A DNA stretch of 64,000 bases from an archaeon (GTDB taxonomy: Archaea > Nanobdellota > Nanobdellia > Pacearchaeales > GW2011-AR1): positions 9,861 to 73,860 of the forward strand of contig JBDRCQ010000003.1 in NCBI GenBank assembly GCA_043821585.1, written 5' to 3'. Every line of letters starts with the position of its first letter. Position 1 is the first letter of the stretch. The notes beneath the pieces were generated by a model. That model saw only the letters and a program-made list of their open reading frames with translations. It was not told where the DNA came from and searched no databases. The position numbers and the translations under genes were made by a program. Of the stretch, positions 53,413 through 55,866 are shown piece by piece.

Positions 53413-54203
53413 TCACTTTATAGCCACAACAATCATGTCTTCAGAATCAGGAGAATATTTCGAACCATTCCAATCAGAATAAATCTCAACCTTGCTAAAT
53501 CCTACTTCTTTGCACATCCCTTCAAACTCTTCTTTTGTATAAACCCTGACCGAGTAATCTTTCATCTCGACTTTTCCATTTTTCTCAAGAACCCAAACTC
53601 CATGGTTTCTCTTTGTTTCCGGACTATAAAACTCGATCTGCCTCATGAAGCCGCCACCCCCCAAACTCCTCTTCTCATATTCTCTAAACTTTCCAGCGAA
53701 AACTCTTGGCATATTCACATCAGTGTGCATTAGGAATTTGCCCCCTTTCCTCAATGAGTTATAAAAATTCTTTAATACCTTAAGATTTTCAGAGTCTTTC
53801 TCAAAGAAGCCAAAGGAATACCACATATTTATCGCGCAATCAAATTTGCAATCATAGTCTAAGTCAAGCATATTTGCTTTTTTGAACGAGACTTCAACCT
53901 TCTGCTTTTCCGCATCCTTTCTAGCAACATTTAATTCATGAGTATTCAAATCAACCCCTTCAACCTCAAACCCATTTTAGAAAGCCCAATACTGTGTCTT
54001 CCGTAACCACATGGACAATCCAGTATTTTATCCCTCTTCTTTAACCCGCAAACTTTAATCACCCCATTAACTTCTTCCTCAGTTCTTTCCTTCAGGTTCA
54101 TCTTTCTGCCTTCATGATATCCTTCATTAGAATTATCGCAAGTCATGTAAAACTTACCAAAAAACCCATAATTTTCAGACCACCATTCTTTTTTCATTTT
54201 CAA
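53413..54203 (-). pseudogene. Class I SAM-dependent methyltransferase split by a single -1 frame break (pseudogene, sequencing error, or programmed -1 frameshift)
   Basis: The upstream ORF (54203-53946) ends ...ILDCPCGYGRHSIGLSKMGLRLKGLI*. The downstream frame reads NGFEVEGVDLNTHELNVARK... Together they restore motif I plus the acidic loop (LDCPCGYG ... GFEVEGVD). The two frames overlap only within 53949-53976. Confidence 0.7.
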
Positions 54204-54625
54204 AACTCCCGATACCTCGCGTTCCCCACATGCCCCGGAACATCCATCAACAAAGACTTATTAGAACCGAAATGCGCCCTAATAACCTTAAACTTTTTTT
54301 TCTCCAGCTTAGAAGCAATCATCTTCAACGTCTTCAAACCCAAACTTGAACCTGCAATATTGTTAGACAGATGAGCAAAAGGACAAACAACAACACTTTT
54401 CCTGCCAAGCTCTTCACACATTTTCTCTATTTCTCCCACCATTCCCGAAGAAGTTTTCTCAGCATCATCTCCTTTCTCAACAGTTACATACGCAACAACA
54501 CAATCTTTGCATTCCTGTTTCTCCATTCCATCAACCGGCTCAGGCCTTATACTTCCAAGCCTATTTGCATAACTATCAAATTCCACAGCCCATTTCCTGC
54601 AATGAAACAACAGCGCCCTCATCAT
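54200..54625 (-). CDS. Free-standing archaeal-type threonyl-tRNA synthetase editing domain (tRNA-Thr_ED / DTD-like fold)
   Basis: 141 aa. It is collinear by eye with the Pyrococcus ThrRS N-terminal editing domain: LLFHC vs LLIHS, VAYVTVEKGD vs VAFISVEKVD, VVCPFAHLSN vs FVYPFAHLSS, and AHFGSNKSLLMDVPGH vs APFGYYKAFKISCKGH. Confidence 0.75.
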   Translation of the reverse strand: MMRALLFHCRKWAVEFDSYANRLGSIRPEPVDGMEKQECKDCVVAYVTVEKGDDAEKTSSGMVGEIEKMCEELGRKSVVVCPFAHLSNNIAGSSLGLKTLKMIASKLEKKKFKVIRAHFGSNKSLLMDVPGHVGNARYREF

Positions 54626-54670
54626 TTCTAAAAGAACAGCCCATTTTTATTTTTTACTATAGCAGAAATA

Positions 54671-54678
54671 TTTTTATA
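54671..54678 (+). promoter_or_regulatory. Candidate TATA box for the secreted-protein gene at 54700
   Basis: TTTTTATA is centred about 25 nt upstream of the ATG. Confidence 0.3.
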
Positions 54679-54699
54679 CGCTGTTAACAACCTTAATGA

Positions 54700-55866
54700 A
54701 TGAAAAAGAGGCTGTTGATAGCATTAATTTTAATGTGCTCGGCATTTAGTGCTAATGCAGCAGTTGTTTCCCATAATGCAAATCAGGTATTCTTTGACGA
54801 TGGAGACAGCCTTAAAACGAAGTTTGATTCAATTAGTTCTGGACAATGGAGTGAGGGCACTATAACTGCCGGAGACATTTATTACATAGGTGGAGACGTA
54901 GGAATTGGAACAACATCCCCCAACGCAAAACTTGAAGTCGCAACCCCTTCTGCCGGGCCAACAGTGGTCTTGGGTAGATTATCTGACAATCCCTCCATAA
55001 AATCAACTAACTACCTTATGTTAGACTCAACTGGCGCAGAAGCAGGGATAAATTGGTTTTCTGACGATGACGTCATCTTGGCTTACGGCGGGGGCTATGT
55101 TGGAATCGGGGAAGATGGAAGAGGCCCAGAAGCTAAGCTCCACATAAGGGGCGGCGGATCTCAAGTCCTAAGAATTGAATCAAACACCGGTAATCCCACC
55201 GCTCTAGAGTTTGTTAGGTCCGGAGACCAAAGGGACTGGCAGATAATAAACAACGGAGGCGATTTAAGAATCAACAGCAAGACAACTGGAAGTTATGCAG
55301 CAGATCCCAAAATGATTATTGATTCAGCTGGTAGAGTGGGAATAGGCGCGACTAGCGAGCTTACTGAAAGGTTGAACGTCAACGGAGTTATCAAATTGCG
55401 TTCAATAAAAGACTGGGATAGCACTTCTTTCTATCTAGATCCGAACGGAGAATCTGCCTTGCTTAACCTAATAATTAATGGAGGCCTTTGTTTTGGTAGT
55501 ACTGATTGTATTGCTGGTTGGAATGAAATCGGCGGTGGACCGGGTACTTGCAGCGATTGCGACGGCAGATTTGTAAACACTGGAGAATCTGCCTTCCTAA
55601 ACAATCTCGAGGTTACTGAAAACGTCGATGTTGCAGGAACTGTCTTCATGGGTTATGAGATCGTGACTGCCACTGGAACTACCACCGCAGATGCTGTCTG
55701 CCCTTCTGGAAAGAAAGTACTCGGGGGAGGATGTGATGCAGGAAGCGGTTGTCAGATTGAAATAGCCATGCCCTACGCTTCTCCAACCAGTAGTTACTGG
55801 TGCAGAAGCGCTGACTGCGGGGGGAGCTTAAGGGCTTATGCCATCTGCGCAAGAGTCGGAGACTAA
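54700..55866 (+). CDS. Secreted Gly-rich protein with tail-fibre-like repeat motifs and Cys-rich C-terminal domain
   Basis: 388 aa with a Sec-type signal (MKKRLLIALILMCSAFSANA). It has three copies of a G-x-VGIG-x(4-7)-[KR]L-x-[VI] motif: GDVGIGTTSPNAKLEV, GYVGIGEDGRGPEAKLHI and GRVGIGATSELTERLNV. The C-terminus has a CPSGKKVLGGGC ... YAICARV module. Confidence 0.6.
   Translation: MKKRLLIALILMCSAFSANAAVVSHNANQVFFDDGDSLKTKFDSISSGQWSEGTITAGDIYYIGGDVGIGTTSPNAKLEVATPSAGPTVVLGRLSDNPSIKSTNYLMLDSTGAEAGINWFSDDDVILAYGGGYVGIGEDGRGPEAKLHIRGGGSQVLRIESNTGNPTALEFVRSGDQRDWQIINNGGDLRINSKTTGSYAADPKMIIDSAGRVGIGATSELTERLNVNGVIKLRSIKDWDSTSFYLDPNGESALLNLIINGGLCFGSTDCIAGWNEIGGGPGTCSDCDGRFVNTGESAFLNNLEVTENVDVAGTVFMGYEIVTATGTTTADAVCPSGKKVLGGGCDAGSGCQIEIAMPYASPTSSYWCRSADCGGSLRAYAICARVGD

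Follow-up and report, generated by a model that had tools for sequence, protein, structure and literature searches.

The window, by which we mean the whole 64,000-nucleotide stretch of archaeal DNA analysed here, contains an open reading frame (ORF) of 141 amino acids that resembles the editing domain (ED) of archaeal threonyl-tRNA synthetases (ThrRS) and stands on its own. Such a gene raises the question of whether it serves an organism whose ThrRS lacks an editing domain, as an earlier note on this DNA had predicted, or whether a free-standing domain of this kind is put to another use. The gene, its key residues and the adjoining features are as follows.

54200..54625, minus strand: stand-alone ED gene, 141 aa, defined by the ORF, PF08915, PDB matches, AF2, Foldseek and family alignments
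Key residues of the ED protein: P82-F83-A84-H85-L86-S87; H118-F119-G120-S121-N122-K123; G131-H132
Key residues at its C-terminus: G134-N135-A136-R137-Y138-R139-E140-F141
54626..54699, no strand: divergent intergenic region, 74 nt, AT-rich, defined by the sequence itself
53413-54203, minus strand: class-I SAM methyltransferase downstream of the ED gene, from the sequence, a split gene
54700-55866, plus strand: divergent gene whose 388-aa product has a signal peptide of the Sec type along with Gly-rich VGIG repeats

The stand-alone gene, its family and its surroundings

A Pfam scan of the ED protein matched PF08915 (tRNA-Thr_ED) with 83.5 bits (E 1.8e-23; cut-off 30.2) and returned no second family, residues 2-132 aligning to positions 1-128 of the 137 in the profile. 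This bears out the end-to-end match to the archaeal ThrRS editing domain claimed in the earlier note, as does the presence of the PFAHLS motif at residues 82-87. The NCBIfam models for ThrRS and Ser-tRNA(Thr) hydrolase were matched over the first ~130 positions only, and NF011500 (Ser-tRNA(Thr) hydrolase) is covered by the ED protein at positions 28-124 of 387 only. On the strength of these matches and of its single domain of 141 aa the protein lacks a catalytic and an anticodon-binding domain, and its description as free-standing agrees with both the Pfam and the NCBIfam results. The nearest solved structures by sequence are the ThrRS editing domains of M. jannaschii, P. abyssi and A. pernix. 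An AlphaFold2 (AF2) monomer model built with 30 homologues (mean pLDDT 88.9) was compared with known structures using Foldseek and matched the P. abyssi domain (PabNTD) with a TM of 0.85-0.86 and an rmsd of 2.3 A, and 1y2q, 3pd4 and 4rrf with a TM of 0.82-0.86 and an rmsd of 2.0-3.9 A; the DTD-like fold expected of the protein is thus seen in the model, by its match to PabNTD at TM 0.86. Similarity to DTD and ATD themselves is remote, with a TM of only ~0.65 and 10-20% identity. The DTD1 family PF02580 gave no match to the ED protein in the Pfam scan and the Gly-cisPro motif of DTD1 is missing, the matching segment reading G-N-A-R, without Gly-Pro. We could confirm that the ED ORF is real, is a member of PF08915 and is free-standing, and it lies well beyond chance because 45 near-full-length homologues and 34 loci in species-representative genomes were found.

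The true start of the ED gene is probably the second ATG (54622), which would give a protein of 140 aa, since the family consensus opens MRALLFH. The gene has its own upstream intergenic region, as had been stated, in the form of 74 AT-rich nucleotides separating it from the plus-strand gene for the secreted 388-aa protein, which has no Pfam match. Both promoters presumably lie within these 74 nt (54626..54699), where A/T-rich TATA-like runs are found 13-30 nt upstream of the ED ATG. The GC content near the ED gene is unremarkable, which speaks against a compositional island. A methyltransferase does follow the ED gene, with its ATG 2 nt past the ED stop codon, and is of the class-I SAM type, but its gene is frameshifted. 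One frame of 85 aa and one of 178 aa result, each aligning with 61-65% identity to a single intact homologue of 276 aa that likewise lies directly downstream of the ED gene at locus L019. The frameshift site is an A4 run (TCTAAAATGGG, near 53960), and the split is due either to an assembly error of 1 nt or to a genuine frameshift.

Threonyl-tRNA synthetases of the host and of other carriers

The host genome (1.22 Mb in 22 contigs, 86.6% complete) contains two PF08915 matches, the ED ORF and C6:74723-75121 (159.5 bits, within a 578-codon frame). The latter belongs to a ThrRS of 568 aa (C6:74723-76435) in which tRNA-Thr_ED (156 bits) is accompanied by a class II core as well as by an anticodon-binding domain; the motifs of its editing domain are canonical (YPYAHLS, FGYYK and GHPLSEL). 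The prediction that this organism's ThrRS would be without an editing domain therefore fails, and since the host ThrRS has its own, the stand-alone ED is no substitute for a missing cis domain. From the idea of a minimal trans-editing factor we can retain that the protein could act in trans, but there is no missing ThrRS editing domain for it to replace.

A similar picture emerges from the 34 other carrier genomes. ThrRS of the archaeal, ED-fused type was found in 10 of these and full-length bacterial-type ThrRS (620-729 bits) in 22 of the remaining 24, while G151 and G181 gave no full-length ThrRS match. The N-termini of the bacterial-type enzymes were read in 12 of the 22 carriers and all 12 contain the N2 editing motifs (HSxxH ... 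DLC[KR]G[GP]H); a Pfam scan of five bacterial-type enzymes gave a tRNA_SAD match in each. A ThrRS demonstrably without an editing domain was found in 0/34 (10 archaeal, 22 bacterial type, 2 without a full-length match), and no carrier genome shows the split-ThrRS arrangement for which the earlier note had proposed a survey of relatives. In the split ThrRS systems of Crenarchaeota, ThrRS-ed (the Ser-tRNA(Thr) hydrolase; Korencic et al. 2004, as cited in PMC5424206 and PMC8762117), a protein of the same editing-domain family, likewise acts in trans. ThrRS-ed has kept its anticodon-binding domain and works together with a ThrRS-cat that lacks editing, whereas the window protein has no anticodon-binding domain and its host ThrRS has an editing domain of its own.

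We also observed that in some DPANN archaea a bacterial-type ThrRS (tRNA_SAD/N2) replaces the archaeal ED-fused enzyme. These include G163 (= G110), where the gene lies at C4:179133-180836, and also G153, G154, G160 and G162. Their archaeal nature is apparent from TBP neighbours, from DTD2, or from a Nanoarchaeota label together with membership in the GTDB order of the window, and several of the DPANN MAGs with a bacterial-type ThrRS have bacterial NCBI titles (Chloroflexi, Falkowbacteria).

Relatives and distribution of the clade

Although the earlier note had implied that a bare editing domain is new, such proteins were described by Mukai et al. 2017 (mBio, PMC5424206, Text S1), who defined stand-alone 'tRNA-Thr-ED' proteins with a wide distribution, no anticodon-binding domain and a Glu135 (Mj) that is not conserved, and who suggested hydrolysis of aminoacyl- or hydroxyacyl-tRNAs as their activity (PMC5424206). 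A 2022 review restates the genomic association only (PMC8762117), and a full-text literature search found no paper assaying any stand-alone member. The window ED resembles the tRNA-Thr-ED proteins in its single domain, in having no anticodon-binding domain and in the equivalent of Mj Glu135 not being conserved, and the tRNA-Thr-ED proteins, like the ED clade, are patchy among prokaryotes; the window ED adds one more member to a family that the literature had pointed out before (Mukai et al. 2017). KKR49220 (Magasanikbacteria) and EKD43573 (ACD_72C) from Data Set S1 of that paper end in GHPGSFRYREFY and belong to the same clade as the window ED. The SepCysS-linked subgroups of Mukai et al. differ in possessing a canonical serine pocket and in lying beside SepCysS or tRNA-Cys genes, whereas the window ED falls in a rewired clade. 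We rejected a SepRS/SepCysS link, which had been hypothesised in the literature for other groups of tRNA-Thr-ED proteins, for the host because its genome has no such system, a tblastn search finding no SepCysS and a weak, PheRS-like match for SepRS.

A length-restricted homology search identified 45 proteins of 137-142 aa with 45-81% identity (98% for one fragment), some of which NCBI labels 'threonyl-tRNA synthetase editing domain-containing protein' and assigns to Nanoarchaeota, Pacearchaeota or Woesearchaeota. The clade carries the signature PFAHLSNNLA ... RAHFGS[NH]K-SLLLD-x-YGH-x-GN-[AV]-R-[YF]-RE-[FY], after which the chain stops, its proteins being ~138 aa in length with the C-terminus GH-x-GN-x-R-[YF]-R-E-[FY]. 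The clade alignment has 23 invariant columns and the window protein has every clade-invariant residue. A profile search covering 1.84 billion representatives gave 865 matches at E <= 1e-3 and 25 at E <= 1e-30, with no informative domain fusions, the best 150 representatives being almost all ~138-aa stand-alone proteins or ThrRS. Maximum-likelihood analysis recovers a monophyletic clade (100/99, or 99 with a larger tree) that is nested among archaeal ThrRS editing domains on a long branch (1.0 substitutions per site), apart from a large bacterial/archaeal 'SLAKVFK' stand-alone group. That 'SLAKVFK' group forms a clade of its own and lacks the Lys121 equivalent, a residue that the window clade keeps.

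Within the host's DPANN order (n=151) an ED-fused ThrRS was found in ~137 genomes and the stand-alone paralog in 7, all from one family; it is absent from the two other genomes of the host's genus. The scan of species-representative genomes gave 34 loci with a stand-alone ED, and the assignment of many of the hosts to CPR bacteria was confirmed by bacterial neighbours (FtsH, a peptidoglycan-binding protein, PilM and Pol III alpha) and that of archaeal hosts by adjoining TBP genes. In a sample of 201 genomes from the CPR class around carrier G164, PF08915 occurs in that carrier only (1/201). In the tree, DPANN hosts are interspersed with CPR hosts, from which we deduce horizontal transfer, and the distribution indicates that ED is a rare, patchy accessory gene that has passed between DPANN archaea and CPR bacteria. 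A viral origin was rejected, there being no relative in IMG/VR viral contigs.

All-against-all clustering of the neighbours at 35 loci revealed no conserved synteny, with no cluster common to more than 4 loci, and the survey identified no conserved neighbour pointing to a substrate. Aspartate racemase was not among the top 25 of the 79 families in immediate ED neighbours. A SAM methyltransferase lies beside ED in the window and at L019, L022, L032, L033, L029, L030 and L013, and was rejected as a partner, being heterogeneous and present in 9/65 immediate neighbours vs ~10/150 other locus genes (p 0.08). A tRNA gene is found <=300 nt upstream of ED in 6/24 carrier loci from genomes with a bacterial-type ThrRS, well above chance expectation (p ~3e-6), as listed here.

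L027:4422-4498: tRNA gene, Lys-UUU, 7 nt away
L038:5926-5999: tRNA gene, Ile-UAU, 1 nt away
L033:5836-5923: tRNA gene, Ser
L029:5812-5888: tRNA gene, Pro
L032:5660-5747: tRNA gene, Ser
L039:5739-5811: tRNA gene, His

Because the tRNA identities differ between loci, this adjacency looks like co-transcription or tRNA-linked insertion and not like a specific tRNA partner; the 64-kb window has no tRNA gene. A SerRS gene convergent to ED, or one gene from it, was seen at L024:6422-7672 (-) and L031:7016-8293 (-), which are sister tips, and the adjacency thus amounts to one evolutionary event. At the related CPR loci L036:2398-3369 (+) and L037:6611-7744 (+) the gene beside ED encodes a D-isomer-specific 2-hydroxyacid dehydrogenase or a DAO-family FAD oxidoreductase, the dehydrogenase lying 17 nt upstream of ED on the same strand. 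These neighbours are suggestive of hydroxyacyl or D-stereochemistry ideas, as single cases that are not conserved.

Active site and candidate functions

The residues within 6 A of the scissile bond in PabNTD are P80, F81, A82, H83, Y120 and K121 together with E134 of the partner subunit (Ahmad et al. 2015, PMC4491819). The serine moiety is contacted by the side chains of Tyr120 and Glu134, and catalysis is performed by the 2'-OH of A76; activity is abolished by H83A and K121M, while the Y120A and E134A mutants continue to deacylate Ser-tRNA-Thr and to reject Thr (PMC4491819). The adenine has F117 stacked on it (PMC3845328). These and other positions were compared between 86 distinct clade members and 25 ThrRS editing domains. 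Using Pab numbering, H7, E46, D49, P80, A82, H83, L84, S85, F117, G118, K121, G129 and H130 do not differ between the two groups, and P82, F83, A84, H85, F119, G120 and K123 of the ED protein are invariant in the 86 clade members. The clade departs from ThrRS editing domains at P116 (His), W/Y119 (Ser), Y120 (His/Asn/Asp) and F123 (Leu), and further at L132 (Gly), S/A133 (Asn), E134 (Ala/Val/Ile) and L135 (Arg), with H118, S121, G134, N135 and R137 of the ED protein constant in the clade and occupied by other residues in ThrRS editing domains. The serine-pocket side chains Tyr120 and Glu134, which are invariant in ThrRS editing domains, are Asn122 and Ala136 in the window protein, and the clade chain stops right after the cross-subunit strand.

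Relative to the archaeal ThrRS NTDs (PabNTD 1Y2Q/2HL1, MjNTD 4RRF, ApNTD 4RR6), which share its Pfam family and fold, the ED protein thus has the same adenosine pocket and the same residues at P80, F81, A82, H83, F117, G118, K121, G129 and H130, but it is unfused, has ~30% identity, replaces Tyr120 and Glu134, ends at the cross-subunit strand and has His118, Ser121, Gly134, Asn135 and Arg137 as new invariant residues. Judged from the comparison of 86 with 25 sequences and the published residue roles, the clade retains all the residues known to be needed for A76 binding and hydrolysis with its amino-acid contacts swapped, the substitutions falling, on this alignment, exactly on the side chains that contact the amino acid and on the cross-subunit strand.

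We consider it reasonably probable that ED is an intact, selectively maintained stand-alone paralog that acts in trans as an aminoacyl-tRNA deacylase with a rewired amino-acid pocket. Its lineage would have split off inside the radiation of ThrRS editing domains to become a stand-alone protein of ~138 aa. Homology with PabNTD and DTD makes it most likely a homodimer with cross-subunit active sites, in which the invariant Phe119 and Gly120 together with PFAHLS would hold the 3'-terminal A76 of the aminoacyl-tRNA, and hydrolysis of the ester would be RNA-assisted, the 2'-OH of A76 activating a water that the invariant Lys123 positions. Asn135 and Arg137 may be placed in the pocket, going by the PabNTD literature. 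DTD and ATD are free-standing proteins of ~150 aa with a DTD-like fold that act at the CCA end without an anticodon-binding domain, and with ATD there is already an example of a paralog whose specificity has shifted. Because the pocket replacements are clade-invariant and the chain stops after the cross-subunit strand, we infer that the substrate may carry an aminoacyl (or modified acyl) group different from L-Ser on tRNA-Thr, or one in addition to it, although the loss of Tyr120 and Glu134 is by itself no proof of new specificity since Y120A and E134A PabNTD stay active.

The main rival to the rewired-pocket reading is a redundant 'third-sieve' trans-editor that would remove Ser-tRNA-Thr missed by the cis editing domain of ThrRS, in the way AlaX serves AlaRS, which we regard as unlikely while weighing it seriously. 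Every residue needed for PabNTD activity is kept, Y120A and E134A keep both activity and Ser/Thr discrimination (PMC4491819), the isolated NTD can recognise tRNA via U73 (PMC8762117) and a T discriminator ends the host tRNA-Thr genes, and ED has a SerRS gene next to it at L024 and L031, two archaeal loci that are related. However, a redundant editor of the same substrate sits poorly with replacements that are invariant across the clade and that coincide exactly with the amino-acid pocket and with the cross-subunit strand, and with a clade branch of 1.0 substitutions per site. The gene is also very rare, implying no general need for it, and is found too in bacteria whose ThrRS has the unrelated N2 editing domain.

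A more specific form of the rewired-pocket reading, which we put forward as a quite unlikely and strictly tentative proposal, is that the GN-x-R-[YF]-RE-[FY] clade constitutes a new specificity class of DTD-fold deacylase for non-free-L-amine substrates, with its gene traded among DPANN/CPR symbionts. With the Glu anchoring the free alpha-amino group lost and an invariant Asn/Arg pair gained on the cross-subunit strand, the substrates could be N-blocked, aldehyde-modified, alpha-hydroxyacyl or D-aminoacyl-tRNAs. The traders would be ultra-small DPANN/CPR symbionts, mostly without DTD1 and DTD2.

That ED serves in chiral proofreading as a substitute D-aminoacyl-tRNA deacylase, in ultra-small symbionts without DTD1 and DTD2, appears improbable to us. 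The host genome is without DTD2 and DTD1 and 29/35 carriers, the host genome counted, have neither; DTD2 is absent in 6/7 carriers of the host's own order vs 49% overall (p 0.052, the carriers not being phylogenetically independent). The DTD-like fold and the DAO-family oxidoreductase adjoining one locus and D-2-hydroxyacid dehydrogenase another are also consistent with such a role. The background nevertheless accounts for the pattern, as DTD1 is missing in 197/201 genomes of the CPR class around G164 and ED is present in 1/201, DTD2 is absent in 74/151 genomes of the order, including whole genera, irrespective of ED, and 6 carriers do have a DTD. With the background similarly poor in DTD1/DTD2, DTD replacement by phyletic complementarity is unsupported, and unlike DTD the protein has no Gly-cisPro motif and keeps the K121-equivalent Lys where DTD has Met. 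As a separate observation, DTD1 (PF02580) was found in only 4/201 genomes of the CPR class around G164, where D-aminoacyl-tRNA handling is explained by neither DTD1 nor a stand-alone ED.

We think it very improbable that the protein is a non-catalytic binder of tRNA or of the CCA end, or a decaying duplicate. Of the seven side chains close to the scissile bond two are altered, and the frameshift in the adjoining methyltransferase hints at local decay or assembly error, but the ORF is intact with all clade-invariant residues present, the catalytic-site residues are invariant, and 45-81% identity with 23 invariant columns is maintained across two domains of life. The model of the earlier note, a split ThrRS in which a minimal trans-editor offsets an ED-less ThrRS, is scarcely credible and is rejected for the host genome, since even though the protein is a bare ED homologue with PFAHLS, the editing domain of the host's own ThrRS is intact with no sign of catalytic death in its sequence, and 32/34 other carriers have a full-length ThrRS with editing motifs in every one read.

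The deacylase with a rewired pocket remains the reading that we favour. The presence of a stand-alone editing domain does not imply that the synthetase has lost its own, and the tempting inference to that effect is wrong. What is marked out instead is a small, sharply defined orphan clade of the DTD fold, common to DPANN and CPR, in which the RNA-assisted scaffold appears to be kept and the pocket rewired. Its substrate, if found, would represent a new trans-editing activity in translation quality control and would give insight into how minimal symbionts police their tRNA pools.
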